A DNA stretch of 64,000 nucleotides from Gammaproteobacteria bacterium (GTDB lineage: Bacteria; Pseudomonadota; Gammaproteobacteria; Ga0077536), in assembly GCA_041984235.1 (NCBI GenBank), contig JBHIYN010000016.1, forward strand, positions 67,058-131,057. Direction: 5' to 3'. Shown one piece after another: positions 11,384-64,000 of this stretch (position 1 is the first letter of the stretch; every line of letters begins with the position of its first letter). Position numbers and translations under genes: made by a program. The notes beneath the pieces are model-generated. The model saw nothing but the letters and a program-made list of their open reading frames with translations, ran no database searches and was not told the origin of the DNA.

Positions 11384-11450
11384 GCGCCGCGCCCCGCGGA
11401 AAAAAGAAGCGCCACTCGAAGTGGCGCCTCGCGTGAACGGCGCGTGCCGT

Positions 11451-12326: not shown

Positions 12327-12362
12327 GGTTTGAGCTTCCCGGTTGAGAGAATGGCGCCGGCG

Positions 12363-47227: not shown

Positions 47228-47337
47228 AGGAACCGGGTTCGCGCCCCGATCGGTCGCGAAAATCGGGGAACGTGTTCCCCGCACGCAGGCGATGTGGTAG
47301 CGTTCGCCACTCTTCCCAGCGTCGCCCGGAACGGCTC

Positions 47338-47787
47338 TTGGCCAAGCTCGCCATCATCAACGGTCCCAACCTCAACCTGCTCGGCAGCCGCGAGCCGGCG
47401 CTGTATGGCGCGACCACGCTGGCCGAGCTCGAGGCGCGGCTGGTCGAGGTGGCGGCCGGGGCGGGCTTCGCGGCGAGCTGCTTCCAGAGCAACGCCGAGG
47501 GCGCGCTGGTCGAGCAGGTGCACGCGGCCGGCGCCGCGGCGGCCGACTTCGTCGTCATCAACCCGGGCGCCTACACCCATACCAGCATCGCGCTGCGCGA
47601 TGCCTTCCTCGGCGTCGCCGTGCCGTTCATCGAGGTGCACATCTCGAACGTGTTCGCGCGCGAGGAGTTTCGCCACCGCTCCTACCTGTCCGACATCGCG
47701 CTCGGCGTCATCTCGGGGCTGGGGGTGCAGGGCTACGAGCTCGCCATCACCGCAGCCGGCGAGTGGGTGCGGCGGCACAAGCTGTGA
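47338..47787 (+). CDS. aroQ: 3-dehydroquinate dehydratase type II
   Basis: TTG start giving [23 protein letters not shown]...[13 protein letters not shown]. Confidence 0.85.
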
Positions 47788-47868
47788 ACGACGCGCGCCG
47801 CGGCGTGCGCCGGCAACGACAATGACAACGGGACCGTGCTCCTGAGCACGGATCCGGGGGATAGCCAA

Positions 47869-48312
47869 GTGGACATCAGGAAGGTCAAGAAACTCATCGA
47901 GCTGCTCGAGGAATCGGGCGTCGCCGAAATCGAGATCCGCGAGGGCGAGGAATCGGTACGCATCAGTCGCGGCGCGGTCTCGATCGCCGCCCCGGCGGCC
48001 GCTGCCCCCGCGCCAATCGCCGCCCCCGGCCCGGCGCCGGCAGCACCCGCCGCCCCCGTGGCTGAGCCCGCGCCCGAGGGCACGACGGTGACCGCACCCA
48101 TGGTCGGTACCTTCTACACCTCGCCGTCGCCCGAGGCCGCGCCGTTCGTGCGCGTCGGCCAGACGGTCAGCGTCGGCGACCCGCTGTGCATCATCGAGGC
48201 GATGAAGATCATGAATCCGATCGAGTCCGAGGTCGACGGCACCGTCAGCGCGATCCTGGTCGAGAACGGGCACCCGGTGGAGTACGAGCAGCCGCTGTTC
48301 ATCATCACCTGA
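47869..48312 (+). CDS. accB: acetyl-CoA carboxylase biotin carboxyl carrier protein
   Basis: GTG start gives [22 protein letters not shown], as in E. coli AccB. Biotinyl motif [10 protein letters not shown]. An upstream in-frame ATG at 47836 is also possible. Confidence 0.85.
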
Positions 48313-48355
48313 GTTCCCCCTCTTTCCGCACAGCCCAGACAGCCGGCGCATCCCT

Positions 48356-49699
48356 ATGTTCGACAAAGTCGTCATCGCCAACCGCGGTGAAATCGCCCTG
48401 CGCGTCCTGCGCGCCTGCCGCGACCTCGGTATCAAGACCGTCGCCGTTCACTCCGCCGCCGATCGCGATCTCAAGCACGTACGCCTGGCCGACGAGTCGG
48501 TGTGCATCGGTCCCGCCGCGGCGGCCGAGAGCTATCTCAACGTGCCGGCGGTGATCGCCGCGGCCGAGGTCGTCGACGCGGTCGCCATTCACCCCGGCTA
48601 CGGCTTCCTGTCCGAGAACGCGGACTTCGCCGAGCGCGTGGAGAAGTCCGGCTTCGTGTTCATCGGCCCGCGCCCGGAGACCATGCGCCTGATGGGCGAC
48701 AAGCTATCCGCCATCGCCGCCATGCAGGAAGCGGGCGTGCCCTGCGTGCCGGGCTCGGTCAAGCCGCTGGGTGACGATGCGCAGGAGAACCTCGCACTCG
48801 CGCGCCAGATTGGTTACCCCGTGATCATCAAGGCCTCGGGCGGTGGCGGCGGCCGCGGCATGCGCGTGGTGCACAGCGAGGCGCACCTGCGCAACGCCAT
48901 CGTGCTGACCAAGCGCGAGGCGGCGAGCGCGTTCAACAACGACAGCGTCTACCTGGAGAAATTCCTCGAGCACCCGCGCCACGTCGAGTTCCAGGTCCTC
49001 GCCGACGGCCACGGCAACGCCATTCACCTGGGCGAGCGCGACTGCTCCATGCAGCGCCGTCACCAGAAGGTGCTGGAGGAAGCGCCGGCCCCGGGCATCG
49101 ACGCCGCCACGCGCGCGCGCATCGGCGGGCTGTGCGTGGACGCCTGCAAGCGCATCGGCTACCGCGGCGCCGGCACCTTCGAGTTCCTGTACGAGAAGGG
49201 CGAGTTCTACTTCATCGAGATGAACACGCGCATCCAGGTCGAGCACCCGGTGACGGAGATGATCACCGGCATCGACCTGGTCAAGCAGCAGCTGCGCGTC
49301 GCGGCCGGCGAGAAGCTCGACATCACCCAGGACGACGTCAAGATCTCCGGCCACGCGATCGAGTGCCGCATCAATGCCGAGGATCCCTATACCTTCCGCC
49401 CGTCGCCGGGCCGCATCGCCGTCTACCATCCGGCCGGCGGCCCCGGCGTGCGCATCGACTCGCACATCTACGACGGCTACGTGGTGCCGCCCTACTACGA
49501 CTCGCTGATCGGCAAGCTCATCGTGCATGCCGAGGATCGCGACGCCGCGCTCGCACGCATGCAGAACGCGCTCACCGAGCTCGTCATCGAAGGCATCGAC
49601 ACCAACATCCCGCTGCACATCGACCTCGTCTCCGATGCCGCCTTCCGTAACGGCGGTACCGACATCCACTACCTCGAACGGCGCCTGGGCCTGGTCTAG
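48356..49699 (+). CDS. accC: acetyl-CoA carboxylase biotin carboxylase subunit
   Basis: 447 aa, [36 protein letters not shown]-grasp. Confidence 0.95.
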
Positions 49700-49720
49700 C
49701 CGAGCGCCCGGGGTAGCGCC

Positions 49721-50587
49721 ATGTACGCGGCCCGCTTCACCGTCGATGCCGCCGGCTGGCCGGCGCTGGAAGCCGAGCTGGAAGCGCTGGGCGCACTGGC
49801 CATCACCTGCGCCGACGGCGACGCGCCGCTGTTCGACGAGCCCGGCACGGCGAGCAGTGAGCAGTGGGCGCGCTTCGCGGTGGAGGCCCTGTTCGACGAG
49901 GCCGTCGCGGCCGATGCGGTGCGCGCGCTGCTCGCACCGCGCGCGGTGAGCATCGCCGCGGTCGCCGAGGACGCCTGGGCCGAGCGCTGGAAGGCGCACT
50001 GGCAACCGCAGATCTTCGCCGGCGGCCTGTGCGTGCATCCGAGCTGGTGCGCGCCGGCGCCCGGCGCGCGTCACCTGATCGAGCTCGATCCCGGCCAGGC
50101 CTTCGGCACCGGCACCCATCCGACCACCGCGCTGTGTCTCGACTGGCTCGCCACGCAGGCCCCGCTCACCGGCCAGAGCGTGATCGACTACGGTTGTGGC
50201 TCGGCCATCCTCGCCCTTGCCGCCGAGCGCTTCGGCGCCGCGCACGTGCAGGCGGTCGACATCGACCGCGCCGCGCTCGCGGTGGCCGCCGACAACGTCG
50301 CGCGCAACGCGGCCGGCGCGGTGGTCAGCGTCGGCGCACCGGACACCCTCGCCGCCGGCAGCGCCGACCTGCTGATCGCCAACATCCTGCTCGAGCCGCT
50401 GCTGTCGCTCGCCGATCGTTTTGCTGCGCTGCTGCGTCCGCACGGCCGTATCCTGCTCTCCGGCGTGCTGGCAACGCAGGTCGAACGCCTGCAGGCCGGC
50501 TACCCGGGCGCTTTCGCGTTCGACCCGGTCATGACGCGCGAGGAGTGGGCCGCGCTGGCCGGCCGCCGTGTGCCGGCGACGGTGTAA
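49721..50587 (+). CDS. prmA: ribosomal protein L11 methyltransferase
   Basis: 288 aa with LDPGQAFGTGTHPTTALCLDWL and DYGCGSAILALAA. Confidence 0.85.
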   Translation: MYAARFTVDAAGWPALEAELEALGALAITCADGDAPLFDEPGTASSEQWARFAVEALFDEAVAADAVRALLAPRAVSIAAVAEDAWAERWKAHWQPQIFAGGLCVHPSWCAPAPGARHLIELDPGQAFGTGTHPTTALCLDWLATQAPLTGQSVIDYGCGSAILALAAERFGAAHVQAVDIDRAALAVAADNVARNAAGAVVSVGAPDTLAAGSADLLIANILLEPLLSLADRFAALLRPHGRILLSGVLATQVERLQAGYPGAFAFDPVMTREEWAALAGRRVPATV

Positions 50588-50646
50588 ACTGCGGCCGGAG
50601 AGGCGGGCCGCCGCGCCCGCCCGCTGACCGAGGGGGAGAAGCGCGC

Positions 50647-51954
50647 TTGCTGACGCGTTGCCCGACATGCCAGAGCTGGTTTCGCGTGCGCGCCGAGCAC
50701 CTCAGCGCGGCCAGCGGTTACGTCACCTGCGGCCAGTGCGACGCAGTGTTCAACGCCCTGGCCACGCTGGTCGAGGAGAGCGCGCCGCCGGTGGCGCCCG
50801 CGGCGCCGCGCGCCGACGCCGTGCCGGTACCCCCTGCATCGCGGCCGCCGGACGACGTGGCGCAGGCGCAGGCCGCCGTCGCGGAGAAGACGGATGCGCG
50901 GGCGGTCGCACCCGAAGCACCCCCTGAACCGGCCGCGGCGGCCTTGCCGACGGACGGGGAACCTGCGACGCCACCCGCGGCTGCCGACGAGACCCGCGCC
51001 GCGGCGCCCACGGTCGCTGCGGACGGTCCGCCTCCGGTGCCGGGCAACCCGCCGCAAGCTGCCAGCGCCGCCGAACGGGAGGACGCCGCGCCGCCGGCGG
51101 CCGCCGTTATCCCGGACGCCGCCGAACCCGCGCCCGGCGACGCGCCCGGCGGCGATCTGGCCGACGAATGGAGCGCCGAGTTCGACGCCATGGTCGACGC
51201 CGATGCCGGCGCGCCCGAGGCGAATCACGCCGACGAGCCGGAGCGCGCGACCCCCGGCGGCGCCACGCTGAGCGCGGCCGAGCACGCCATCCTCTTCACC
51301 GAGCCCGGCAGTGGCGACGACGACGAGGACGAGGGGGAAGACGAGGACGCGGATGCGGCCGGCGCCGCCGCGTCCGCGGACAGCACCGGCGATGACGCCG
51401 AAACCGACGCCACCGTGCCCGACGCGGTGCCTCCGGTGATCGAGAGCGAGGTCGCCGCGCTCGCCGGCGTGCGCCCCGGCGCCGCCCGCGGTGCGAACCT
51501 GTGGCGCGCGGCGCTGCTGCTGCTGGCGGTCGCGCTGCTCGCGCAGGGTGTCTTCGCGCTGCGCGCGCCGCTCGCCGCCGCGTGGCCGGCCAGCCGGCCG
51601 TGGTTGGAGGCGATGTGCGCGCGGCTCGGCTGCCAGCCCGAGGCCGCGCCGCAGGACACCGTGCGCCTGCTGGCCCGTGACGTGCGCGAGCATCCGCAGT
51701 ACCGCGACGCGCTGCTGGTCAACGCGACCCTGGTCAACCGCGGCGGCGCGCCGCAGCCCTACCCGGTGCTCGAGCTGCGCCTCAAGGACGGCAACGGGAT
51801 GCTGGTCGGCGCGCGCCGCTTCGCGCCCGGCGAGTACCTCGATCACAGTATCGACGTCGACGCCGGCATGCCGCCGGGCCAGCCGATCTACGTGGTGATG
51901 GAGCTCGGCGGCGACGCCGCCGCCGCGACCAGCTTCGAATTCTCCTTCCTGTAG
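50647..51954 (+). CDS. DUF3426-like protein with N-terminal MJ0042-type zinc ribbon and long acidic Ala/Pro-rich linker
   Basis: TTG start, TRCPTCQSWFRV...CGQC. Low-complexity acidic middle region, a TM helix (LWRAALLLLAVALLAQ), and C-terminal DUF3426-like domain. Follows prmA as in many gammaproteobacteria. Confidence 0.55.
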   Translation: MLTRCPTCQSWFRVRAEHLSAASGYVTCGQCDAVFNALATLVEESAPPVAPAAPRADAVPVPPASRPPDDVAQAQAAVAEKTDARAVAPEAPPEPAAAALPTDGEPATPPAAADETRAAAPTVAADGPPPVPGNPPQAASAAEREDAAPPAAAVIPDAAEPAPGDAPGGDLADEWSAEFDAMVDADAGAPEANHADEPERATPGGATLSAAEHAILFTEPGSGDDDEDEGEDEDADAAGAAASADSTGDDAETDATVPDAVPPVIESEVAALAGVRPGAARGANLWRAALLLLAVALLAQGVFALRAPLAAAWPASRPWLEAMCARLGCQPEAAPQDTVRLLARDVREHPQYRDALLVNATLVNRGGAPQPYPVLELRLKDGNGMLVGARRFAPGEYLDHSIDVDAGMPPGQPIYVVMELGGDAAAATSFEFSFL

Positions 51955-52187
51955 CGCCCCGGCGCGGCGCCGGCGGCGCTGCCGCGGCGCACCGTGATAG
52001 CGCAGGCGCGCGCCGCCCTTTCAGGATGGCGGGGTTCTGGCTATCATCCCCGCTCGCGCCGGTGCCGCGGGGGAAAACGACGGTGCCGCGCGATCAACCC
52101 GTCCCGTGTCTTCAAGAACGTGCGGCCAGCACGCGCGCAGGGGCGGCGTTTCCCCGGGGTGCAGATCACGCTATCGCTGAATCGCTG

Positions 52188-53162
52188 ATGAAGATCGGGC
52201 CGTATGAATTCACCACGCCCATCGCGCTCGCGCCGATGGCGGGGATTAGCGATCGCCCCTTCCGCCTGCTCTGCCGCCGCTACGGCGCCGCCTACGCGGT
52301 GTCCGAGATGGTCGCTTCGCGCACCGCGCTGTGGGCGAGCCGCAAGACGCGCACGCGGCTCGACATGCACGACGAGCCGGCACCGCGCATCGTGCAGATC
52401 GCCGGCGCCGATCCGGCGCTGATGGCCGAGGCCGCGCGGCTCGCCGTCGACCACGGCGCCGACGTCATCGACATCAACATGGGCTGCCCGGCGAAGAAGG
52501 TCTGTCACAAGCTGGCCGGCTCGGCGCTGCTGCGCGACGAGGTGCTGGTCGGTGCGATCCTCGACGCGGTGGTCGCCGCGGTCGCCGTGCCGGTGACCCT
52601 GAAGACGCGCACCGGCTGGGACCCCGCGCATCGCAACGGGCCGGCCGTCGCGCGTCTCGCCGAGCAGTGCGGCGTTGCCGCCATCACCGTGCACGGGCGC
52701 ACCCGCGCCTGCGCTTTCCGCGGCAGTGCCGAGTACGACACCATTGCCGTGATCAAGGACGCCGTGCGCATCCCGGTGATCGCCAACGGCGACATCGCCG
52801 ACGTGGCGCGCGCCCGCCGTGTGCTCGAACACACCGGCGCCGACGGGCTCATGATCGGCCGCGCCGCACAGGGCCGGCCGTGGCTGTTCGGCGAGCTCGC
52901 CGCGGGACTCGAAGGGCGCGCCTGGGCGCCGCCCTCGGCCGCCGAGCGCCGCGCGCTGATGGCCGAGCACCTCGAGTTGCTGCATGCCCATTACGGGCGC
53001 GACGCCGGCACGCGTATCGCACGTAAGCACGTCGGCTGGTACCTCGCCGGGTGGCCCGAGGCGCGCGCGCTGCGCGCGGACTTCAACCGCATCGAGGACG
53101 CCACCGCACAGCAGCGTTTCGTCGCCGCGCTGGCCGCGGAGTCGCTGGAGCTCGCCGCATGA
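52188..53162 (+). CDS. dusB: tRNA-dihydrouridine synthase B
   Basis: 324 aa, [20 protein letters not shown]...[11 protein letters not shown]. Confidence 0.9.
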
Positions 53163-53413
53163 GCCCGACGCGCAAGAGCGCCGGCGAGCCGCTGTGCGAG
53201 CAGGTCAAGCGCTCGGTCGAGCAGTACTTCGAGGATCTCAACGGCGAGCAGCCGACCAACCTGCACGAGTTCGTGATCAAGCAGGTCGAGCGCCCGCTGT
53301 TCGAAATCGTGCTGCGCGAGACGCGCGGCAACCTCTCCGCGGCGGCCAAGATCCTCGGCCTCAACCGCGCCACGCTGCGCACGCGGCTGAACAAGTACGG
53401 CCTCAAGGAGTAG
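53159..53413 (+). CDS. fis: DNA-binding protein Fis
   Basis: 84 aa with C-terminal [33 protein letters not shown] overlap with dusB. Confidence 0.9.
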
Positions 53414-53415
53414 GC

Positions 53416-54996
53416 ATGAACGCAACGGCGAGGCGCGCCCGGCGCTGGGCGCTGGTCAGCGTTTCCGACAAGCGCGGCGTGGTCGAGCTGGCGCAGGCGA
53501 TTGTCGCCGCCGGCATCGGCGTGCTCTCGACCGGCGGCTCCGCGCGCACCCTGCGCGAGGCCGGCATCGAGGTGCGCGACGTCTCCGAGCACACCGGCTT
53601 CGCCGAGATGATGGAAGGGCGGGTCAAGACCCTGCACCCCAAGGTGCACGGCGGCATCCTCGCGCGGCGCGGCACCGACGACGCGGTCATGGCCGAGCAC
53701 GGCATCGAGGCCATCGACCTCGTGGTGGTCAACCTCTATCCCTTCGAGCAGACCATCGCACGGCGTGACTGCACGCTGGACGAGGCCATCGAGAACATCG
53801 ACATCGGCGGCCCCGCGCTGCTGCGCGCCGCGGCCAAGAACCACGCCCACGTCGCCGTGGTCTGCGATCCGGACGATTACCCGCTGGTGATGTCCGAGCT
53901 CGGCAAGTCCGGCGAGGTCGGCGCGGCGACGCGCTATCGCCTGGCGACCAAGGCCTACGCGCACACCGCCCACTACGACGCCGCGATCAGCACGTTTCTG
54001 GCCGCGCGCGGCGCCCGCGATCCGGATGCCTTCCCGCGCCAGCTCGACCTGCGCGTGACCCTGCAGCAGAACCTGCGCTACGGCGAGAACCCGCACCAGC
54101 GCGCCGCCTTCTACGTCGACACCAACCCGCCGCCCGGCACCCTCGCCACCGCGCGCCAGCTGCAGGGCAAGGCGCTCTCCTACAACAACATCGCCGACAC
54201 CGACGCCGCGCTCGACTGCGTGCGCTCGTTCCGCGAGCCGGCGTGCTGCATCGTCAAGCACGCCAACCCCTGCGGCGTGGCCGAGTCGCGTGACCTGGAG
54301 CAGGCCTACGAGCTCGCCTGGGCCACCGATCCGACGTCCGCCTTCGGCGGCATCATCGCTTTCAACCGCCCGCTCGAAGCGGAGCTCGCGCGCACCATCG
54401 TCGAGCGCCAGTTCGTCGAAGTGATCATCGCGCCCGGCGTTACGCCGGAGGCGCTGCAGGCCTGCAGCGTGAAGAAGAACGTGCGCGTGCTGGCGTGCGA
54501 GCCGTGGCCGGCCGAGCCGCTGCGCCAACTCGAGTACAAGCGCGTGATGGGCGGGCTGCTGGTGCAGGACCGCGACTTCGCCGCGCAGACCCTGAGCGCC
54601 GGCTCGCTCAAGACCGTGACCAGACGCAGCCCCGACACCGACGAGCTGCGTGACCTCATCTTCGCCTGGCGCGTGGCCGCCTGCGTCAAGTCGAACGCCA
54701 TCGTCTACGCGCGCAACCGCCAGACCATCGGCATCGGCGCCGGCCAGATGAGCCGCGTCTACAGCGCCCGCATCGCCGGCATCAAGGCCGCCGACGAAGG
54801 CCTCGAAGTGAAAGGCTCGGTGATGGCCTCCGACGCCTTCTTCCCGTTCCGCGACGGCATCGACCAGGCCGCCGAGGCCGGCATTCGCGCGGTGATCCAG
54901 CCGGGTGGATCGATGCGCGACGAAGAGGTGATCGCGGCGGCGGACGAGGCGGGGATGGCGATGGTGTTCACCGGCGAACGCCACTTCCGCCATTGA
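53416..54996 (+). CDS. purH: bifunctional AICAR transformylase/IMP cyclohydrolase
   Basis: 526 aa, [20 protein letters not shown]... Confidence 0.95.
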
Positions 54997-55007
54997 GTGG
55001 CCGCTGA

Positions 55008-55460
55008 CGCGTCTCATGCGGCACAGGGCGGCGTTAATAATCGGCTCGGAATGCTCATGTACTGTTTGTACACTCCGCTTCCTCGCCGATTCTTGCCTTG
55101 CCCTGCACTCGCCTGAGTCACTTCATCGGCCACTCAACGAGCTAATCGATTGTCAGCACGTCTCAGACCGCACATGGCTGCGTTGAAAACCGGCTCGGAA
55201 TGCTCATGTACTGCGTGTACACTCCGCTTCCTCGCCGGTTTTCGCCTTGCCCTGCACGCTCTGAGCCGCACTGACAGCCGATTAGCCGAGTCGCCGCTGA
55301 AGCGTCTCAGTGCGCGCATGGCTGCGTTGAAAACCGACTCGGAATGCTCATGTACTGCGTGTACACTCCGCTTCCTCGCCGGTTTTCGCGTTGCCCTGCA
55401 CGCTCCGAGACGTGCTGACAACCGATTAGCCGAGCCGGCGGTGAGGCGCCTCGTTTCCGT
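55008..55460. repeat. three tandem ~140-160-bp intergenic repeats, each with a 10-bp-stem hairpin (GAAAACCGGC...GCCGGTTTTC)
   Basis: Units start at 55008, 55147 and 55309, each beginning CGTCTCA. Conserved core GGCTCGGAATGCTCATGTACTGCGTGTACACTCCGCTTCCTCGCC. The overlapping predicted ORFs on both strands are repeat artefacts. Confidence 0.7.
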
Positions 55461-55532
55461 AAGTGAAACTATACGGACCGCTACGCCGACACCGGCACCG
55501 CACTGGGTCAACGGGCAGGCGACGGAGCGAGC

Positions 55533-56819
55533 ATGAAAGTTCTCATCATTGGCGGCGGCGGGCGCGAGCATGCGCTGGCCTGGAAGTGCGCGCAGTCGCC
55601 GCTGGCGAGTGAGGTCCTGTGCGCGCCCGGCAACGCCGGCACCGCGCGTGAGGCGAAGGTGCGCAACGTGGACGTCGGCGCTGAGGACGTCGGTGCCTTG
55701 GTCGAGCTCGCCGAGCGCGAGGACGTCGGGCTGACCATCGTCGGACCCGAAGCGCCGCTCGCCGCGGGCGTGGTCGATGCCTTCATGCTCGCCGGCCGGC
55801 GCTGCTTCGGGCCGCCGCAGGCGGCCGCCGTGCTCGAGGCGTCCAAGGCTTACACCAAGGATTTTCTTAAACGCCACGGGATTCCGACCGGCGGCTACGC
55901 GACCTTCGAGGACCTGGACGCCGCGCTGGCGTACATCGAAGCGGGCCCCGAGCGCGTCGTCGTCAAGGCCGACGGCCTCGCCGCCGGCAAGGGCGTGGTG
56001 GTCGCCGCCTCGCGGGAGGAAGCGCAGCAGGCCGCGCGCGCCATGCTCGCCGAGAACAGCTTCGGCGCCGCCGGCAGCCGCATCGTCGTCGAGGAGTTCC
56101 TCGAAGGCGAGGAGGCGAGCTTCATCTGCATGTGCGACGGCGACACCGCGGTGCCGTTCGCCTCGTCCCAGGATCACAAGGCGCGCGACGACGGCGACCG
56201 CGGCCCCAACACCGGCGGCATGGGCGCCTACTCACCGGCGCCGATCGTGGACGAGGCCATGAGCGCACGCATCATGCGCGAGGTCATAGAGCCGACGCTC
56301 GCCGGCATGCGCGCCGACGGCCGGCCCTACCGCGGCTTCCTCTACGCCGGGCTCATGATCGGCGCAGACGGCGTGCCGAAGGTGCTCGAGTTCAACTGCC
56401 GCTTCGGCGATCCCGAGACGCAGCCGATCATGATGCGCCTGAAGACCGATCTCGTCGCCGCCTGCCTCGACCTGCTCGACGGCCGCGCCGCGGGCGTCGA
56501 GCTCGAGTTCGACCCGCGCGCCGCGCTCGGCGTGGTGCTCGCCGCCGGCGGCTACCCCGGCAGCTACGACAAGGGCGCGGTCATCGGCGGGCTGGACGCC
56601 GCGCAGCCGGACACCTACGTCTTCCACGCCGGCACCCGCCTCGAAGGCGAGGACTGCGTCACCGCCGGCGGCCGCGTGCTGTGCGTGGTCGGCCTCGGCG
56701 ACAGCGTCAGCGAAGCACAGGCCCGCGCCTATGCCCGCGTCGACACCATCCACTGGGACGGCATGGTCTGCCGGCGCGACATCGGCTACCGCGCGGTGGC
56801 GCGGGAGCGGGGCTGCTAG
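55533..56819 (+). CDS. purD: phosphoribosylamine-glycine ligase
   Basis: 428 aa, MKVLIIGGGGREHALAWK..., ATP-grasp. Confidence 0.95.
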   Translation: MKVLIIGGGGREHALAWKCAQSPLASEVLCAPGNAGTAREAKVRNVDVGAEDVGALVELAEREDVGLTIVGPEAPLAAGVVDAFMLAGRRCFGPPQAAAVLEASKAYTKDFLKRHGIPTGGYATFEDLDAALAYIEAGPERVVVKADGLAAGKGVVVAASREEAQQAARAMLAENSFGAAGSRIVVEEFLEGEEASFICMCDGDTAVPFASSQDHKARDDGDRGPNTGGMGAYSPAPIVDEAMSARIMREVIEPTLAGMRADGRPYRGFLYAGLMIGADGVPKVLEFNCRFGDPETQPIMMRLKTDLVAACLDLLDGRAAGVELEFDPRAALGVVLAAGGYPGSYDKGAVIGGLDAAQPDTYVFHAGTRLEGEDCVTAGGRVLCVVGLGDSVSEAQARAYARVDTIHWDGMVCRRDIGYRAVARERGC

Positions 56820-56828
56820 GCATCGAGC

Positions 56829-57821
56829 TCAGCGCTGGTCTTGGTCGCGGCGGCCGAGCACCGCCGACAGTGGGCTCTTCACGGCGAGGCCGCCGCGATT
56901 GAGCACATGCGTGTAGATCTGCGTGGTTCGAATATCCCGATGACCCAACTGTTCCTGCACCGTGCGGATATCGGCCCCGCGCTCCAGCAGGTGTGTCGCG
57001 AACGAGTGCCGCAGACTGTGGCAGGTTGCCGGCTTCTCGATTCGCGCGTCGAGAACCGCGCGACGCACCGCCCGTTGCACCCGCTGCTCGTCGAAATGAT
57101 GACGCCGCCGGCGTCCGCTGCGCGGATCGCGGGAGATGCGATCCGCAGGGAACACGTACTGCCAGCTCCACTCCGTTGCTGCGCGCGGATACTTGCGTTC
57201 CAGCGCGAAAGGCAACCACACCTCACCGCAACCGTTGGCGACGTCGCGGTCGAAGACGGTGCGCCGGTCTGCGAGGTGGCGCCGCAACGGCACGATGAGC
57301 TCATCCGGCAGCGTCACGACGCGATCCCGTCCGCCTTTCCCGTCCCGGACGAGGATCGCCCGATGCTCGAAATCCAGATCCTTTACCCGCAAACGAACGC
57401 TCTCCATCAAGCGCAGGCCGGAGCCATACTGCAGGCATGCGATGAGCCAGGCGGCCCGCTCGACGCGCAGCAGCACTTTCGTGACTTCCTCCACGGTGAG
57501 CACTACGGGTAGCCGTTCCGGTCGCTTCGCGCGAACGACGTTCGTCATCTCGTCGAGCGGCCGTTCGAGAACATGACGGTACAGGAAGACGAGGGCATTC
57601 AACGCCTGGTTCTGCGTCGCCGGCGCCACCTTACGTTGCAGCGCAAGGTGGGTGAGGAAGCGCTCGACTTCCGCAGAGCCCATCTCTTCCGGATGCCTGT
57701 TCCCGTGGAACCGGATAAAACGCTTCACCCAGTCGACGTAGCGCTGCTCCGTGCGGATACTGTAGTGGCGCATCCGGATCGCGGCGCGAACCCGCTGCAG
57801 GAATGGCGATGGTGGCGACAC
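56829..57821 (-). CDS. intI: integron integrase (IntI family tyrosine recombinase)
   Basis: 330 aa collinear with IntI1: [39 protein letters not shown], the integron-specific extra segment ALERKYPRA...[14 protein letters not shown], and [15 protein letters not shown] with catalytic Tyr. GTG start. Confidence 0.9.
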
Positions 57822-57894
57822 GTCCCTGTGCGCTCCTCATGGTTTTATCCAAACGTACTGACTGGTCCCGGGAATCGCAACAGTCCGCCAAGCG

Positions 57895-58093
57895 GGCTGC
57901 GCGGATCCACGTCAAATCGACACTTTTTCCCAGAGAACGATGGGAGAAAAGATGACGACGGCTCCAACGCATGCTAGAAAAGAACAAGCCTTTTCAGACA
58001 GTAAAGGCTCCCTCCTCTTCTCCAAGGACGGTCCACCCCATGAACGCAGTTGCGGATCCCCGTCAAATTGACGTGTTAGATCACGTCAGAATG
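57895..58093 (+). other. attI: putative attI integration site
   Basis: Direct repeats TGCGGATCC(A/C)CGTCAAAT(C/T)GAC (57899 and 58031). Core-like GTTAGAT (58055) and GTTAGGC (58087-58093) in the same orientation. Followed immediately by the first cassette. Confidence 0.5.
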
Positions 58094-58135
58094 ACGTCCA
58101 ATTGCTGTTAGGCGGCTAGGATAAGTAGTCTCTTC

Positions 58136-58465
58136 ATGGCGGCCAAAATGGAGATAGTAAGCGAGCCAATTGGAATCGGCTTGCTGATACGTACACCTGG
58201 CCGTTATGCGATGGGCGTCGGCGTAGATGTCCTCAACTTTCTTGACGGGCAACCTGATATTTCTGTGAAGAACACCGGGTGGAAGAATGGCTTTGGTTTG
58301 GACGTTGCGGTTTCACTCCCAATTATTCGCATGGGAAGCCTACTCGCAGAGGTTTCGACCGATGGAGAGGAGTTTCATCTTCTCCGGGCATCTGGGCCAT
58401 ACGAAGAGTTCGCGGATTTGCTCCATCGAGTCGGAAAGTTCCTGGAGGACTACGAACCTCAGTAA
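58136..58465 (+). CDS. cassette 1 ORF: hypothetical protein (109 aa)
   Basis: First ORF after attI GTTAGGC. MAAKMEIVSEPIGIGLLIRTPGRYAMGVGVDVLNFLDG..., no recognisable family. Confidence 0.5.
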   Translation: MAAKMEIVSEPIGIGLLIRTPGRYAMGVGVDVLNFLDGQPDISVKNTGWKNGFGLDVAVSLPIIRMGSLLAEVSTDGEEFHLLRASGPYEEFADLLHRVGKFLEDYEPQ

Positions 58466-58708
58466 GGGCTATGCCGAGTGCGCATAGCGGCCGGCGCAGC
58501 ATGCGTTCTGCTTACACTGACTCGGCGGGGCGAGGGAGCCGCAAGAATCCGGCGGATGAGTGGGCGCCTCGAACGCGCTTCGTCAGTCACGCCACGAATT
58601 CTTCTAAATACGTTTGCGCCAGACTTCGGAACGTAGTGGAATCACTAGATGGGCATAGGCTTCGGAAAGCAGGTCGCAGATCATTTCGTTGAGGTCAGCG
58701 CGGCGCCT

Positions 58709-58812
58709 CCTAACAAAGGGATGGAGCCGACAGTCAAAAGCGACACGCCCTTTGCAAAGAGAAGAGCAAAGGCCGCGCCGCTTTCGCCCGCGGCTCATCC
58801 CGGGCGTTAGGC
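58709..58812 (+). other. attC: attC site 1
   Basis: TCCTAAC...imperfect inverted repeat GGGATGGAGCCG/CGGCTCATCCC...GTTAGGC (58806-58812). Confidence 0.55.
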
Positions 58813-58828
58813 ATCTTAGAGATCTCCT

Positions 58829-59518
58829 GTGCAGCAGCTAGACATCTCAGCGATAATGAGGTGGTCCCAGATTGGGAAGGTGCGATTCCCGTCTTCGGCG
58901 TCCATCATCTGCCCATATTGTGGCGAGAAGGGCGTTTTCTCCCTCACCAACCCAACGGACGACCCGCCGCGTCTAGCGCTTTCGGCAACTGCAGCGTGTC
59001 CAGGTTGCGGAAAACCGGTCCAATTCTGGTCGATACGAACCAAGAAAGCGCCGCCCGGCGATGCAGAAAATCCGATCGCCGTATATTTCTATCCGCCCAT
59101 AGAGAACCATTATCGGGTACCTGAATTCACGACAGATATCCCCGAACCGCTAAGTAGGTCATTCGTTTCGACCATCGATGCATATAACTCAAGAAATTAC
59201 GCAGCTACCGCAGTCTTATGCCGTCGAACGTTAGAAGGGATCTTTAAATATCTTCTGCCCCACGAAAAGCAAGATCTACCGCTTCACAAAGCAGTATCCG
59301 AGGTGCAGAACACTAAAGACCTTGCCGCGCCCTTGAACGCTTTGTCCCATGCAATTAGACAAGGCGGAAATCTTGGTGCGCATTTCGATATGGTCAAAGA
59401 GCCCGATGAGCAACTGGCGAAGAAAATGGTCGCATTACTCGAATATCTGATTACTTATCTCTATGAGTTGCCGGCCGAGATAGAACAAATAGAAAAAAGC
59501 CTAGAAAAAGATGCCTAA
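58829..59518 (+). CDS. cassette 2 ORF: zinc-ribbon plus DUF4145/HEPN-like domain protein (229 aa; start may be ATG 58856)
   Basis: N-terminal CPYCGEKG...CPGCGK. C-terminal segment with RRTLEGIFKYLLP...IRQGGNLGAHFD...LLEYLITYLYEL, matching DUF4145 architecture. Stop TAA embedded in the attC GCCTAAC core. Confidence 0.55.
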   Translation: MQQLDISAIMRWSQIGKVRFPSSASIICPYCGEKGVFSLTNPTDDPPRLALSATAACPGCGKPVQFWSIRTKKAPPGDAENPIAVYFYPPIENHYRVPEFTTDIPEPLSRSFVSTIDAYNSRNYAATAVLCRRTLEGIFKYLLPHEKQDLPLHKAVSEVQNTKDLAAPLNALSHAIRQGGNLGAHFDMVKEPDEQLAKKMVALLEYLITYLYELPAEIEQIEKSLEKDA

Positions 59519-59622
59519 CAAGCGGATCAACCTGACGTGTTACAGCGCGCTTCTCTCCTGCGGCTCCGCATTTTCGCTTCCGAGAAGCGCGCTGTAACAC
59601 GCAGGTTATCCGAGCGTTATAT
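59513..59622 (+). other. attC: attC site 2 (family A, ~110 bp)
   Basis: GCCTAACAAGCGGATCAACCTGACGTGTTACAGCGCGC...GCGCGCTGTAACACGCAGGTTATCCGAGCGTTATAT. Confidence 0.7.
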
Positions 59623-59861
59623 GTCGTGTGGACTAAAGAGCCCTCGAGCAAACGTCAGCGCTGCTGCGATTCCTTTCGTGAATAGAGAAAAGCGGCATCC
59701 GGCGGCTGTCGGCCGCGGCAGCGTAGATGGTGCTTCACCTGATACAACGTCGAGCGGTATCGTCGCAGTGCAGGGACGTCCAGGCCGGTAGTCGTGGCGA
59801 AGCGCCCACTTCCGAAAGGAATCGAGATGTCGTGTAAAGCAGGAACAGAATCCTACCCGCC

Positions 59862-59957
59862 ATATAACAAGGCAATGAAGCTGACGTTTGACCGCGCCTT
59901 CCCTTCGCTACCGCTCCGGTCAGTTGCCGTCAAACGCAGCTTATTGCAGCGTTGGGC
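59862..59957 (+). other. attC: attC site 3 (family B, ~96 bp)
   Basis: ATATAACAAGGCAATGAAGCTGACGTTTGACCGCGCC...CCGGTCAGTTGCCGTCAAACGCAGCTTATTGCAGCGTTGGGC. Confidence 0.6.
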
Positions 59958-59960
59958 GTC

Positions 59961-60326
59961 ATGAAACCACGGAGCATTAATCTGGAGGAGAAGCTTCGGT
60001 TGTTCACGGAGCACTGGACTCCCAAGATCATCGGAGAATTGAACGACTACCAGATTAAGGTGGCCAAGTTCCTCGGAGACTTCGTTTGGCATAGGCACGA
60101 CAACACAGACGAACTGTTCTTGTGCTTATCAGGGAAAATGAAGATCGAACTTCGGGACGGTGCCGTAGAGCTGAGCGAAGGGGAGCTATATATCGTTCCG
60201 AAAGGTGTGGAACACAAACCAGGCGCTACAGAGGAATGTCACGTCCTCCTTATAGAGCCTCGAGGCGTCGTTAATACGGGAAATACGAAGAGCGAACTAA
60301 CGGCGCCCGGGGACACATGGATATGA
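59961..60326 (+). CDS. cassette 4 ORF: small cupin-domain protein (121 aa)
   Basis: Cupin_2-like FVWHRHDNTDELFLCLSGKMKIEL...LYIVPKGVEHKPGA. Stop TGA abuts the attC GCCCAAC. Confidence 0.65.
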   Translation: MKPRSINLEEKLRLFTEHWTPKIIGELNDYQIKVAKFLGDFVWHRHDNTDELFLCLSGKMKIELRDGAVELSEGELYIVPKGVEHKPGATEECHVLLIEPRGVVNTGNTKSELTAPGDTWI

Positions 60327-60327
60327 C

Positions 60328-60422
60328 GCCCAACAAGTCGTTGGAGCGGACGCTTGACCGCTCCCTTCCTTCGCTATCGCTCCAGTCGGTCGCCGTCAAG
60401 CGCCGCTCAACTCTGCGTTAGG
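60328..60422 (+). other. attC: attC site 4 (family B)
   Basis: GCCCAACAAGTCGTTGGAGCGGACGCTTGACCGC...CGGTCGCCGTCAAGCGCCGCTCAACTCTGCGTTAGGC. Confidence 0.7.
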
Positions 60423-60432
60423 CGTATTCGCG

Positions 60433-60855
60433 ATGCCTTCATTCGAATCTCGTGTCGAGCGTCTCTGGACTAATCCTAAGAGAGTCCGTGTATCGGCGCC
60501 ATTCGTTTATTTCATCTCGGTATCCGACGAAAACGGCAATGAGTATCGATATGTCGGCCGAGCCCGGGATAAAAGCCGCCTAGAAGAATACAAACGGAAT
60601 ATGGCTAAGATCCGAGCACGAAAGCCACGAGGTAAAAAGCAAAAATATAGAGCTGTGCATTTCGTACTCTACAAGGCGATAGAGAACGATTGGGACATTG
60701 CGTTTCATCCCTATGAAGAATGTTCAGAGTCCCAGCTCAATGAAGTCGAGAATCGTCTAATTAGCGATCTTGCGTGCAACCTGAATTCGGCAAGCACGTG
60801 GCCGATCGAGAAGCTTTCGACACTGACAATCAAAGAACTACTAGAGAATGCGTAA
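60433..60855 (+). CDS. cassette 5 ORF: small GIY-YIG-like protein (140 aa), putative nuclease
   Basis: FVYFISVSDENGNEYRYVGRARDKSRLEEYKR resembles the GIY-(10-11)-YIG-R spacing. Downstream E...N pattern (ESQLNEVENRLISDLACNLN) resembles the distal GIY-YIG catalytic residues. Confidence 0.4.
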   Translation: MPSFESRVERLWTNPKRVRVSAPFVYFISVSDENGNEYRYVGRARDKSRLEEYKRNMAKIRARKPRGKKQKYRAVHFVLYKAIENDWDIAFHPYEECSESQLNEVENRLISDLACNLNSASTWPIEKLSTLTIKELLENA

Positions 60856-60864
60856 GGAGAATAC

Positions 60865-60974
60865 GCCTAACCAATGGATCAACCGGACGTGTTACAGCGC
60901 GCTTCCCTCCGGCGGCTTCGCATTTTCGCCTCCGCGAAGCGCGCTGTAACACGCCGGTTATCCAAGCGTTAGGC
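60865..60974 (+). other. attC: attC site 5 (family A)
   Basis: GCCTAACCAATGGATCAACCGGACGTGTTACAGCGCGC...GCGCGCTGTAACACGCCGGTTATCCAAGCGTTAGGC. Confidence 0.7.
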
Positions 60975-60980
60975 GCTCAG

Positions 60981-61529
60981 GTGCAACTCGAAACCGCCAT
61001 AAAGATAGTCACGTTCTTCGGAGGGACGGTGGGCGCGATATTCGGGGGTATAGCGCTACGAAACCTGCTTTTCCCAATCAGAATAATTCCTTCTTGGCAG
61101 CGCGTTTTCGACGGATCAGAACCGGACGCTATACAAGCACAAATAGTTAATCTCACGGACAAGCCTCTTGTGCTAGTTGCTTGCTCGGCGAAACCAACTT
61201 ATCGCCTTCGAACAATAATCACCCGACATCTCAAAAACCCGCTCACGCCGCGACGCCTATGGCCGAATATTCACTTCACCTCACAGTCCTTTCTGCTCCT
61301 TAACGAACCACAACGTAGACTCGAAGGAAAAGAGGTATTGGAACTAGAGCATAGGTTGTCGTCACACCCGCTTTCGTTTTTGATGGCGCCAATGTTTATC
61401 GTCGAAGTAACCTTGTCGACCGGACGAAAATTCAGATCACGCCGCATCACTGCGCCTGAGCGATGGCTGTTAATTAACAATCTTGATGAGGCTCGAAATC
61501 ATGATTCCCCGAATCAAACACGCGCCTAA
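60981..61529 (+). CDS. cassette 6 ORF: hypothetical protein with N-terminal TM helix (182 aa)
   Basis: GTG start right after attC 5. IVTFFGGTVGAIFGGIALRNLLF hydrophobic segment. Stop TAA inside the GCCTAAC of attC 6. Confidence 0.45.
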   Translation: MQLETAIKIVTFFGGTVGAIFGGIALRNLLFPIRIIPSWQRVFDGSEPDAIQAQIVNLTDKPLVLVACSAKPTYRLRTIITRHLKNPLTPRRLWPNIHFTSQSFLLLNEPQRRLEGKEVLELEHRLSSHPLSFLMAPMFIVEVTLSTGRKFRSRRITAPERWLLINNLDEARNHDSPNQTRA

Positions 61530-61641
61530 CAAGCGGATCAACCTGACGTGTTACAGCGGGCTTTTCTTACGTGGCTGCGCTATTTTCACTTCAGAAAAGC
61601 CCGCTGTAACACGCAGGTTATCCTGGCGTTGTGCGTCTGTA
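61524..61641 (+). other. attC: attC site 6 (family A)
   Basis: GCCTAACAAGCGGATCAACCTGACGTGTTACAGCGGGC...GCCCGCTGTAACACGCAGGTTATCCTGGCGTTGTGC. Confidence 0.65.
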
Positions 61642-61992
61642 GAGTCCGAGCACCAGCGACCGCCATCGGATCCGAACCTCTGCATGCGAATGGCTGAAGC
61701 CGAGGCTACACTCTGAGCAGGCCCGCGAGGCGAGCCACCGAAACCGAGTAGTCGCCCGAGGTTCAAGGATGAAACATCGCTTCAAAGTTAAAGCGGCGGT
61801 TGGCGAAGTGCGGTTCCAGCCGTTTGCTCGTCAATTACATCCAGGCGAGCATTTCCAAACGCACCATGGTCTTTCAGGTTGTCGAAATCGAGGCGCCGCT
61901 GCTGCCGCGCGGCTGCTGCACCCAGTAGCTGGCCGCACCGCCTCTGGCTTCCTGGCGTGGTCACTAGCCACGGCACATTTCTCAGCGCTGCC

Positions 61993-62102
61993 GCACAACA
62001 AGCGGGTGGAGTCGGACGCATTACAGCGGGCTTCCGCTCCGTGCCTGGCTATTGTCACTCCGCAGAAGCCCGCTGTAATGCGCCGCTCACCCGCGCGTTA
62101 GC
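61993..62102 (+). other. attC: attC site 7 (family A variant)
   Basis: GCACAACAAGCGGGTGGAGTCGGACGCATTACAGCGGGC...GCCCGCTGTAATGCGCCGCTCACCCGCGCGTTAGCG. Confidence 0.6.
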
Positions 62103-62119
62103 GTGATTGGAGGAATCCC

Positions 62120-62788
62120 ATGGCTAAGCCGCACCAAATATTCGTAGGCTGTCCATTTGGCCACCCGATCCGCAGGCATTACGACAAGCTTAAGCGCGAA
62201 GTCGAGAAAGAAACGCCTCTGCATATCGTGTTAGCGGATACGACCGCTGTTTCTTCTACCGATTATCTGCTGGAGCACATTACTAGCCTCATTCGTGACT
62301 CCGCGGGCTGCATCTTCGACGTAACTGGTGGCAATCCGAACGTCTCGCTTGAAGTGGGGATCGCACACGCCCTTCCCGCCGATTTCATTCTCGCTTTCTA
62401 CACGAGGAAAGCCCGAAGCCCTGCAGAGAAAGCACTCGCGGAGCAAGGTGAAACGAAGCCGATCATTTCGGATCTTCAAGGCCGCAACCGAATCGAATAC
62501 AAGCAATTTGCCGCACTTAAATCGCAACTCCTGGATCGCTATCTCACACGACTTCCGTACTACCAGCGGTGGCTGCGATTCAAGAAGTCGAACAGCTCAT
62601 ACGAGAAGTATGCTTTGCGGGTTTTCGATGAAATTAGAGATTCTGGCCGCACCCTGACATCTAGAGCATCGGTCGTGCTATCCGGCTCGGGCATAACTAC
62701 TTCCGACTTCGCGAAGGCACTCACGAAAGAGCGCCTAGTCACTATCAAATCGGGAAGGCAGGGTGGCTGGTATTACCCATCACGCTAA
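62120..62788 (+). CDS. cassette 8 ORF: nucleoside 2-deoxyribosyltransferase/TIR-fold-like protein (222 aa)
   Basis: IFVGCPFGH N-terminus and DVTGGNPNVSLEVGIAHALPADFILAF, which resembles the NDT-family D.G...E.G.A.A nucleotide-binding/catalytic segment. Plus a ~100-aa basic C-terminal extension. Stop TAA inside the attC CGCTAAC. Confidence 0.45.
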   Translation: MAKPHQIFVGCPFGHPIRRHYDKLKREVEKETPLHIVLADTTAVSSTDYLLEHITSLIRDSAGCIFDVTGGNPNVSLEVGIAHALPADFILAFYTRKARSPAEKALAEQGETKPIISDLQGRNRIEYKQFAALKSQLLDRYLTRLPYYQRWLRFKKSNSSYEKYALRVFDEIRDSGRTLTSRASVVLSGSGITTSDFAKALTKERLVTIKSGRQGGWYYPSR

Positions 62789-62878
62789 CAAACTGGTCAA
62801 CCGGACGCTTGACCGCTGGCTTCCTTCGCTACCGCTCCGGTCGCCAGCCGTCAAGCGCCGGTTACCAGAGCGTTAGAT
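62783..62878 (+). other. attC: attC site 8 (family B)
   Basis: CGCTAACAAACTGGTCAACCGGACGCTTGACCGC...CCGGTCGCCAGCCGTCAAGCGCCGGTTACCAGAGCGTTAGAT. Confidence 0.7.
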
Positions 62879-62885
62879 TGCAGTA

Positions 62886-63521
62886 ATGAGCTCGGTACTC
62901 AGCTTTGCGCTCTTCTTGTTAATCGGAGTCGTCTTCGGAAAAATAATTGTCTCCGTTGTTAACCTCATGCGAGGTCGACGGAGTACAGCCACCATGGCAT
63001 CCGACGCAGATGTTGCAGCAAACTTGGAACAACGACGCATCAATAACGCGATTGCGGACGCGTCGAACTTGTCCGACGAGCAATACGATGCGGCGCTCGA
63101 CGAGTTCGTCATCCCGTACGAGAACGCTGCGAATTATTTGGTCATAGATTGGCGAGAAGAAGACGATAAAGTCGTGGCAGCCTGCAGGAACGCTCTACTA
63201 GATGGATCTCAGGCCGAACTCAAATTTACATCTGTCGAGAACGATGATCATTGCTCTGCGACAGGCATCCTTAAGTATGGTGACAGATCTCTAGAAATAG
63301 AGATCCCTTTCTCACATAAAAGCCGATACATCCTATTAAGAGCAGTTAATCAAATTCTCTCGCCAGATTACGAAATCCGGCTGATTCGTCACTCCTTGGG
63401 CGGTGACACACATGAATTTATGCTCTTCTCCAGACAACAATGGAGCGAGATACAGAAAACAAGTGAACAATTAGTCAACGGATTGTTCGTCCCACTAACG
63501 GAACCGGTAGATTTCGAGTGA
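62886..63521 (+). CDS. cassette 9 ORF: hypothetical membrane-anchored protein (211 aa)
   Basis: N-terminal TM helix LSFALFLLIGVVFGKIIVSVV, then an acidic soluble domain. No recognisable family. Confidence 0.45.
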   Translation: MSSVLSFALFLLIGVVFGKIIVSVVNLMRGRRSTATMASDADVAANLEQRRINNAIADASNLSDEQYDAALDEFVIPYENAANYLVIDWREEDDKVVAACRNALLDGSQAELKFTSVENDDHCSATGILKYGDRSLEIEIPFSHKSRYILLRAVNQILSPDYEIRLIRHSLGGDTHEFMLFSRQQWSEIQKTSEQLVNGLFVPLTEPVDFE

Positions 63522-63535
63522 TCACCGGGATCTGC

Positions 63536-63633
63536 AATCTAACAAATCGTTCAACCGGACGCTTGACTGCCCGCTCCCTGCGCTGCCGCTCCGGTCGCGG
63601 TCCGTCAAGCGCCGGTTAACAGAAGCGTTGGGC
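63536..63633 (+). other. attC: attC site 9 (family B)
   Basis: ATCTAACAAATCGTTCAACCGGACGCTTGACTGC...CGGTCGCGGTCCGTCAAGCGCCGGTTAACAGAAGCGTTGGGC. Confidence 0.7.
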
Positions 63634-63981
63634 GTCAGCGGACACCGATTTTTCGGAACCAGGCAGCGCGAGCCAGTAAGGGCATCGCTTCACCACAAAC
63701 GCGGTGCAGGCTCGGTCGAAGCGCCGTGCCCGTCCGAGAGGCGGCCCGCCGAATCGGGTTTGCAGGATAGGAGCGAAGGCGTAGGCTTCAAGTCGTGACC
63801 CCGACGCAGCCGGGGTGGGGAAGGATCTTCTCGAGTCAGGGACAGGCACGTGCCGGGGAGTCATTGGAGTGATTGTTGCTGAACTTAGGCCGCATGTGTC
63901 GAGCTGCCGTGCCAGCCTGGTCGCTCGGCACAGCACCGTAGAGTGCCCGCAGCACAGCCATTGGTTCTCAAAGGCCGAGAC

Positions 63982-64000
63982 ACCCAACAAGTTGTTGGAG
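63982..64000 (+). other. attC: start of attC site 10 (family B; truncated by window end)
   Basis: ACCCAACAAGTTGTTGGAG matches the 5' end of attC 4 (GCCCAACAAGTCGTTGGAG). Confidence 0.5.

Follow-up and report, generated by a model that had tools for sequence, protein, structure and literature searches.

The last part of the DNA analysed here, positions 56829 to 64000 of a 64,000-bp stretch from Gammaproteobacteria bacterium assembly GCA_041984235.1 (the whole stretch is hereafter called the window), is very probably a sedentary chromosomal integron located directly after purD in an uncultured gammaproteobacterium of ~70% G + C. The element comprises an integrase gene (intI) convergent with purD, an attI-like region, and an array of co-oriented gene cassettes bounded by attC recombination sites that extends beyond the end of the window. 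It had been described in an initial annotation of the window, and the claims made there are considered below together with the results that bear on them.

An integron integrase convergent with purD

The open reading frame (ORF) at 56829-57821 on the minus strand (intI) encodes an apparently intact protein of 330 aa with matches to TIGR02249, PF13495 and PF00589. The score of this protein against the NCBIfam model TIGR02249 (479.3 bits) was far over the curated cut-off of 265 bits, and it stayed under the cut-off of the IntI1-type equivalog NF011946 (350.6 versus 435 bits). Residues 5-320 were aligned with the Vibrio cholerae integrase VchIntIA (PDB 2A3V) at 341 bits (E = 5e-101), with 52% identity over 317 positions. 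Within this alignment, the IntI-specific extra segment (residues ~203-228, codons 57138-57215 on the minus strand) matched LPTALKEKYPNAPYEFRWHYLFPSFQ of 2A3V without a gap, and the XerC, XerD and XerA chains were aligned with the protein in split stretches or over the C-terminal part alone. In addition, the motif residues R (in GLRLME), K (in GKGG), H-x-x-R (in HSLRHSF), and H and Y (in GH...IYTHV) are identical in the two integrases; these we take to be the catalytic residues of tyrosine recombinases. The initial annotation had described a full-length IntI with the IntI-specific segment, and both the TIGR02249 score and the ungapped alignment bear this out. Taken together, the ORF is predicted to encode a true integron integrase carrying the IntI-specific patch.

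The gene bordering the integron, purD (phosphoribosylamine-glycine ligase, 55533-56819 on the plus strand), was identified by its GARS_N, GARS_A and GARS_C domains (E = 1e-32 to 4e-77). The ORF coordinates confirmed that purD and intI are convergent, with stop codons 9 bp apart. Short contigs from three other read sets were 100% identical to the window over purD, intI and cassettes 1-2, and again over cassettes 7-10, and ended within attC sites, as expected of repeats. Because independent assemblies are 100% identical across the purD-intI junction, this junction is not an assembly chimera. The G + C content falls from 0.70 in window positions 1-56819 to 0.65 in intI and 0.53-0.54 in the array, so that the low G + C content of the cassettes relative to the host, also part of the initial description, was reproduced.

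The attC sites of the array

Nine complete attC sites of 96-111 nt each were found in the window: attC1 to attC5 at 58708-58812, 59513-59622, 59862-59957, 60328-60423 and 60865-60974, and attC6 to attC9 at 61524-61634, 61993-62103, 62783-62878 and 63537-63633. A tenth site, from 63982 onwards, is incomplete because the window ends within it. Two sequence types could be distinguished, one of ~96 nt with the arm GACGCTTGACCGC and one of ~110 nt with the arm GACGTGTTACAGCG, and within each type the sites of the array share 80-96% identity; attC1 is divergent from both. When folded as single-stranded DNA, the bottom strands of all nine sites formed long imperfect hairpins with the AAC/GTT cores paired at the base and with two single-base bulges, both on one arm (9/9 sites). 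Their folding z-scores ranged from -3.1 to -9.1 relative to dinucleotide shuffles (attC2, -8.2). The divergent attC1 folded at -37.6 kcal/mol with a z-score of -7.9.

No match at gathering score to any Rfam family was found anywhere in the window, and the attC hairpins met chance matches to microRNA models only. As no attC family was among the Rfam matches, an attC covariance model, R1, was built here from the nine sites of the array. On this model, attC1 scored 66 bits, and eight further attC sites in the continuation of an identical contig, none of them used in training and attC10 (87.6 bits) counted among them, scored 84-113 bits; the best match in the 57 kb of host DNA of the window had E = 0.47. 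We also applied R1 to 80 unrelated intI loci, i.e., the surroundings of other integron integrases in GTDB genomes, where each of the 81 matches at E < 1e-5 was located upstream of the integrase gene, on its coding strand, as sites are arranged in real integrons. In 96 aligned matches, 93.4% of the cells formed standard pairs, compared with 29-38% when the partners were slid by 1-3 columns, and compensatory changes were observed in 23 of the 31 pairs, in an alignment that was fitted to the model. Thus, the repeats are structurally valid attC sites.

The statement that the cassettes are co-oriented and each bounded by an attC site is therefore supported by folding, by the covariance model and by covariation. 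The core consensus given with it, RYYYAAC/GTTRRRY, holds in part: AAC and GTT are invariant, but strict RYYYAAC is found in only about half of the left cores.

Cassette boundaries and extent of the array

With a crossover at G|TT during integration of cassettes one at a time, complementarity is expected between the left core of an attC site and the junction core that precedes its cassette, rather than between the two cores of one site. Consistent with this, the left core was the reverse complement of the preceding right core at 7/7 positions in 15 of the 17 sites now known and at 6/7 positions in the other two, compared with 3/7 to 7/7 matching positions between a left core and the right core of the same site. 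For example, the left core of attC3, ATATAAC, exactly complements the preceding right core, GTTATAT. Where a window cassette has a clear ORF, the junction lies 10-28 nt before its start, and three cassette ORFs end in a TAA within the left core of the next attC site. These observations indicate that the cassettes, all on the plus strand, are discrete units, each of which would rebuild its own attC site once circularised.

The initial annotation had counted at least ten cassettes in the window. Nine of these are complete, and the tenth is present with its attC site cut at the window end. It had also stated that the array runs on past position 64000, which proved correct: the public contig JBHIVR010000054.1 of GCA_041987945.1, with 100% identity to window positions 46829-64000, carries the array to window-equivalent position 69657, where the contig ends. 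The assembled array thereby reaches a total of 17 attC sites and 17 complete cassettes, and an 18th cassette begins before the contig end.

Recurrence of the purD-integrase junction in related genomes

An integrase gene convergent with purD was also found in three further genomes, UBA981 (locus L056), GCA_050184115.1 (L108) and GCA_942490995.1 (L109), with gaps of 4-31 bp between the two genes. The PurD proteins of these genomes are 77-80% identical to that of the window. A low-G + C array follows the integrase in L108 and L109, and the contig of L056 ends ~2 kb beyond the integrase. The attC sites of these relatives scored 59-112 bits on model R1, and the two attC types of the window array are common to them as well, L108 and L109 included. 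The cassettes, by comparison, differ between the purD-linked arrays. Because the purD-integrase junction and the two attC types recur in three related genomes, the integron appears to be sedentary, with a lineage-associated position. The sedentary chromosomal character claimed initially is thus supported by the housekeeping synteny dusB-fis-purH-purD and by the same junction in three other metagenome-assembled genomes (MAGs). Two of the purD-linked integrases were called at 470 aa (L108, 7319-8731) and 460 aa (L109, 7304-8686), ~140 residues longer at the N-terminus than the window IntI, which may reflect either an extra domain or the start codon that was called.

The intI-attI region and the proposed mechanism

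The spacer between intI and attI (57822-58106, read from the sequence, G + C content of 0.53) ends at a GTTAGGC core at 58107-58113 on the plus strand, which is the first GTTRRRY past intI and lies ~285 bp upstream of the gene. This heptamer had been described initially as following the integrase, and it was found in the expected place; the crossover would fall between G58107 and T58108. The left core of attC1 agrees with the reverse complement of this heptamer at 6/7 positions. The spacer contains two 12-nt direct repeats, CGTCAAAT(C/T)GAC, at 57910-57921 and 58061-58072, and a palindrome, GACGTG-N6-CACGTC, at 58070-58087, which may be considered candidate accessory IntI-binding sites. Alignment of the spacers of the four purD-linked integrons revealed no conserved element. 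We also considered whether the attI region could be a miniature attC site, given a likeness between 58039-58113 and the arms of the ~110-nt attC type; this was rejected, with an unfiltered E-value on the model of at least 0.4.

The most likely mechanism follows by analogy from the established mechanism of integrons, of which the sequence shows the G|TT crossover footprint at every junction. IntI would recognise the folded bottom strand of attC, a hairpin in which the R and L boxes are paired and one arm carries two unpaired bases, and would excise cassettes as circles through attC x attC recombination. Recombination between attI and attC, crossing over at G|TT, could then return the excised cassettes to attI. 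Expression would be polar, from a promoter near attI, and the cassette adjacent to attI would be the most strongly expressed.

Alternative explanations

Several observations weigh against a sedentary and working integron at this locus, or restrict how far that reading reaches. The attI site was assigned from its position and core sequence, as no general attI sequence model exists for comparison. No sigma-70 consensus promoter was found in 57600-58250, in a scan for the sigma-70 consensus only and in a host of ~70% G + C, and no E. coli-type LexA box (CTGT-N8-ACAG, at most one mismatch) was found near intI, in a search whose motif may differ from the LexA motifs of other lineages. With both elements missing from these searches of the intI-attI region, there is no support for expression or for SOS control. 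Model R1 was trained on the array's own nine attC sites. The array size is a lower bound, since the far end is unassembled past window-equivalent position 69657; the assembled part, with no fewer than 17 attC sites and no fewer than 18 cassettes, compares with a criterion of commonly at least 20 cassettes for large arrays. The cassette order sampled (cassettes 1-2 and 7-10) was the same in three independent read sets, and because of this identity there is no direct sign of recent shuffling. A further relative (L110, PurD 78% identical) harbors no integrase or attC site after purD. Finally, the four purD-linked integrases share 51-63% mutual identity, and the window IntI is 73-75% identical to the integrases of two other loci, L003 and L006, versus 56-63% to the other purD-linked integrases.

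Given this greater similarity of the window IntI to integrases found elsewhere, it is not established that the platform as a whole descended in a simple vertical manner; and because L003 and L006, whose integrases are nearest to the window IntI, do not have them beside purD, integrase similarity and genomic position disagree. Fast evolution of IntI, replacement of the platform by recombination, or relocation in the genomes of L003 and L006 may each account for this. The L003 integrase (11344-12408) adjoins a second, phage-type tyrosine recombinase, and that of L006 (11109-13673) adjoins genes for a luciferase-like oxidoreductase and a hemN-like protein, both read from translations.

The alternative that survives best is a fossil integron, whose structure is real but whose platform is inactive, with an array that is frozen and vertically inherited. 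The missing promoter and LexA box and the constant cassette order would fit such a state, as would the widespread loss of activity of sedentary integrons in Xanthomonas, as described in the available text of 10.1101/2025.06.18.660453. However, intI is full length, with the catalytic motif residues and the IntI patch all intact, the attC hairpins are uneroded, with core complementarity that is near perfect, and the sites of each type retain 80-96% identity. The different cassettes in the related purD-linked arrays also imply turnover on an evolutionary time scale. We therefore regard a fossil integron as unlikely.

An integron that is mobile, or borne on an island, and that landed beside purD recently is considerably less likely still. 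It would account for the greater similarity of IntI to integrases elsewhere, one of which (L003) lies beside a phage-type integrase, than to the other purD-linked integrases, and for the relative without the element. Nevertheless, the assembled locus contains no transposase, Tn402-like module or second recombinase, and IntI is under the NF011946 cut-off (351 versus 435 bits). The tight convergent purD-intI junction (4 to 31 bp) in four genomes with common attC types, and the length of the array, whose 17 or more attC sites belong to homogeneous types, likewise argue against a recent arrival. The last alternative, a XerC/XerD-like recombinase beside unrelated palindromic repeats such as repetitive extragenic palindromic (REP)-like elements, which the initial annotation had named as the reading that a profile alignment of the integrase could reveal, is refuted, since IntI does match the Xer models but far under all of their cut-offs, TIGR02249 is matched far over its own, the IntI-specific insertion is present, and the repeats show AAC/GTT cores, one-arm bulges, cassette-wise core complementarity and R1 matches beside 80 other integrases.

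Comparison with known integrons

The nearest counterparts of the element are the V. cholerae superintegron and the ilvD-linked integrons of Xanthomonas. The sedentary integron proposed here shares with the V. cholerae superintegron its IntI architecture, including the extra segment (52% identity to VchIntIA over 317 positions), its chromosomal location, a long co-oriented array, homogeneous attC sites typical of the lineage, and toxin-antitoxin cassettes. It differs in host lineage and locus, as it abuts purD in an uncultured high-G + C gammaproteobacterium, and in having two interleaved attC types (~96 and ~110 nt) instead of the single type of V. cholerae repeat (VCR). The V. cholerae array has well over 100 attC sites, whereas at least 17 were assembled here, and no E. 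coli-type LexA box lies near the intI gene of the window.

The ilvD-linked integrons of Xanthomonas are similar in being located directly downstream of a conserved biosynthetic gene, at a position common to related genomes, with ilvD in place of purD as the anchor. As far as the available text of 10.1101/2025.06.18.660453 goes, the ilvD-linked position was read as an ancestral acquisition, most cassettes had no known function, and intI is inactivated in many species, whereas it is intact here. Vertical descent is also less clear in the present case, as the identities among purD-linked IntI proteins (51-63%) are below some of those to integrases at other loci. With the class 1 mobile integrons (IntI1, attI1, Pc and Tn402), the element has in common the IntI family, the attI x attC chemistry and the structure of the cassettes. 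In contrast to them, it is below the NF011946 cut-off, lies in a housekeeping chromosomal context, and carries neither transposition genes nor resistance cassettes. It does not belong to the class 1 mobile integrons.

The platform is a clean, ordinary example of a well-known class of elements, and only individual cassettes could be new. It is unsurprising because integrons are already established as stores of toxin-antitoxin and antiphage genes in the available text of 10.64898/2026.03.17.712381, in which Darracq et al. and Kieffer et al. (Science 2025) are cited for integron arrays as stores of antiphage genes. The present work adds a well-documented lineage of sedentary integrons to those of Vibrio, Xanthomonas and Shewanella, which usually serve as models. 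The purD anchor, the two attC types across several uncultured gammaproteobacterial genomes, and the intact integrase should be of use when the evolution of integrons is surveyed, and gene-discovery screens could draw on the cassettes of the array.

Cassette content of the window

The cargo appears, from the translations and profile searches, to consist mostly of small stand-alone genes, some with conflict-type domains. Cassette 1 (58108-58806) contains attC1 and an orphan ORF of 109 aa at 58136-58465, taken from the ORF list, with no Pfam, NCBIfam, PADLOC or PHROG match. Cassette 2 (58807-59616, attC2) encodes a protein of 229 aa (58829-59518) with a zinc ribbon and with a DUF4145 domain that was identified by a profile match (PF13643, E = 3.7e-8); the protein also matched phrog_1305 (E = 8e-26), and its stop codon sits in the left core of attC2. 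A cupin protein of 121 aa is encoded by cassette 4 (59952-60417, attC4), from an ATG at 59961 to 60326, with a match to Cupin_2 (PF07883, E = 1.4e-12). The initial annotation had matched no cassette protein to a housekeeping family; as a small correction, two of these proteins have Pfam matches, to DUF4145 and Cupin_2.

Cassette 5 (60418-60968, attC5) contains an ORF at 60433-60855 for a protein of 140 aa, which is predicted to be a stand-alone GIY-YIG-fold nuclease. This protein had no Pfam, NCBIfam or PDB-profile match, and the GIY-YIG fold was settled by fold comparison alone; a GIY-YIG-like residue pattern is conserved in its family. Cassette 6 (60969-61628, attC6) encodes a protein of 182 aa (60981-61529) with a hydrophobic N-terminus and no family. 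Cassette 9 (62873-63627, attC9) encodes a protein of 211 aa (62886-63521) with a hydrophobic N-terminus and a domain of ~125 aa, for which 187 distant homologues were found at E <= 1e-3, without an informative Pfam family. This protein also gave the only PADLOC match among the window cassette proteins scanned, a marginal one (E = 0.02).

Cassette 3 (59617-59951, attC3) comprises 335 bp without a convincing ORF. Cassette 7 (61629-62097, attC7), with 469 bp and a G + C content of 0.62, has a doubtful ORF of 110 aa that enters the attC site and had no family match. In both cassettes, the sole long frames begin in or enter an attC site, and their translations are of low complexity and rich in Ala and Arg. 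Cassette 10 (63628-64000 in the window, with attC10 from 63982) runs to window-equivalent position 64073, has a G + C content of 0.64 and contains no conserved ORF. It is paralogous to cassette 16 (L083, 15069-15511), which lies beyond the window: the two are ~445 bp long, with a G + C content of 0.64-0.65, and share 69% identity over 370 nt, including conserved blocks such as GAGCGAAGGCGTAG and GCTGCCGT.CCA.CCTGGTCG. No common reading frame was found when their six frames were compared. When the two cassettes were folded jointly with RNAalifold, 13 compensatory pairs were obtained; a structured RNA was nevertheless rejected, as the single-sequence folding z-scores (+0.27 and -0.22) were like those of shuffles and there was no Rfam match. 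No homologue of these cassettes was found among ~90 fetched loci, and of two block patterns compared with JGI metagenomes, one gave 0 matches and the other 15, which matched the pattern itself only.

The cassette 8 family and cassettes beyond the window

Cassette 8 (62098-62872, attC8) contains an ORF at 62120-62788 for a protein of 222 aa, which may be divided into an N-terminal N-glycosidase domain resembling nucleoside 2-deoxyribosyltransferase (NDT) and a C-terminal winged helix. It belongs to a family with at least 344 unannotated homologues of ~224 aa, with 57-83% identity among those listed; the few listed homologues with a source name come from MAGs of Planctomycetota and Alphaproteobacteria. 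The family profile weakly matched the NDT of Trypanosoma brucei (E = 0.021), with the FxGxPF motif and an invariant glutamate aligned to IAGPavF and FEVG of that enzyme. In addition, cassette 12, a paralogue of cassette 8 located four cassettes further on (27% identity), matched PF05014 at E = 0.009. The label NDT-like is thus suggested by two weak profile matches and by motif agreement. A TIR label was not adopted, as the structural model had a mean pLDDT (predicted local distance difference test) of 68.7 and was poor across the conserved N-terminal motif.

One homologue of cassette 8 sits between two attC sites of an unrelated array on an 866-kb contig. In three other loci (L087, L088 and L089), a 63%-identical homologue (6001-6675 in L087 and L088) lies 63 bp upstream of a DUF4145 gene of 264 aa; the region is mobile-element-like, has no attC sites, and also encodes a DNA methyltransferase, a helix-turn-helix regulator and a DUF5681 protein. 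In the window array, the DUF4145 gene and the cassette 8 gene are separate cassettes. Cassette 8 had no PADLOC match. We tentatively suggest, as a possibility well short of even odds, that one or more of the cassettes may represent a conflict module (antiphage or toxin) that consists of a single gene and has not been described before, for which the cassette 8 family would be the best candidate. The main candidates for novelty in the array are this widespread unannotated family, with its NDT-like and winged-helix parts, and the stand-alone GIY-YIG-fold nuclease missed by sequence models. The ORF-less cassettes 10 and 16 are a weaker, secondary peculiarity of the array.

Besides the two paralogues already mentioned (cassette 12, and the ORF-less cassette 16), the cassettes beyond the window encode a membrane protein (cassette 11), an orphan of 142 aa (cassette 13), an Abi_alpha protein (cassette 14, 68.7 bits), small proteins with hydrophobic segments (cassettes 15 and 17) and a BrnT/BrnA toxin-antitoxin pair (cassette 18). 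A kinship of cassette 13 with the DUF4145 protein, suspected from a HEPN-like R-x4-H motif, was rejected because there was no significant similarity. The expectation of toxin-antitoxin and antiphage genes in the array is consistent with BrnT/BrnA and Abi_alpha just beyond the window and with the GIY-YIG-fold nuclease and DUF4145 within it. By analogy, this cargo would agree with the literature, in which chromosomal integrons are seen as stores of such genes.

Host and genomic context

The integron lies beside a series of host genes in the order aroQ, accB, accC, prmA, a gene for a DUF3426 protein, dusB, fis, purH and purD. No transposase or other mobility gene was found in the assembled locus, the contig continuation included. 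The closest homologues of PurD (up to 81% identity) are from MAGs labelled Gammaproteobacteria bacterium, and the nearest homologues of IntI (up to 75% identity) belong to MAGs that carry the label Gammaproteobacteria or Pseudomonadota. The host is thus an uncultured high-G + C (~70%) gammaproteobacterium without a close named relative.

Two minor features of the host DNA were also observed. The intergenic region between purH and purD (54995-55452) contains 3.1 tandem copies of a 144-bp unit with 79% matches and a lower G + C content of ~0.59-0.63, and had no Rfam match at gathering score. In window positions 50800-51600, within the gene of the zinc-ribbon/DUF3426 protein, the G + C content reaches a peak of 0.78-0.80, compared with a window mean of 0.70.

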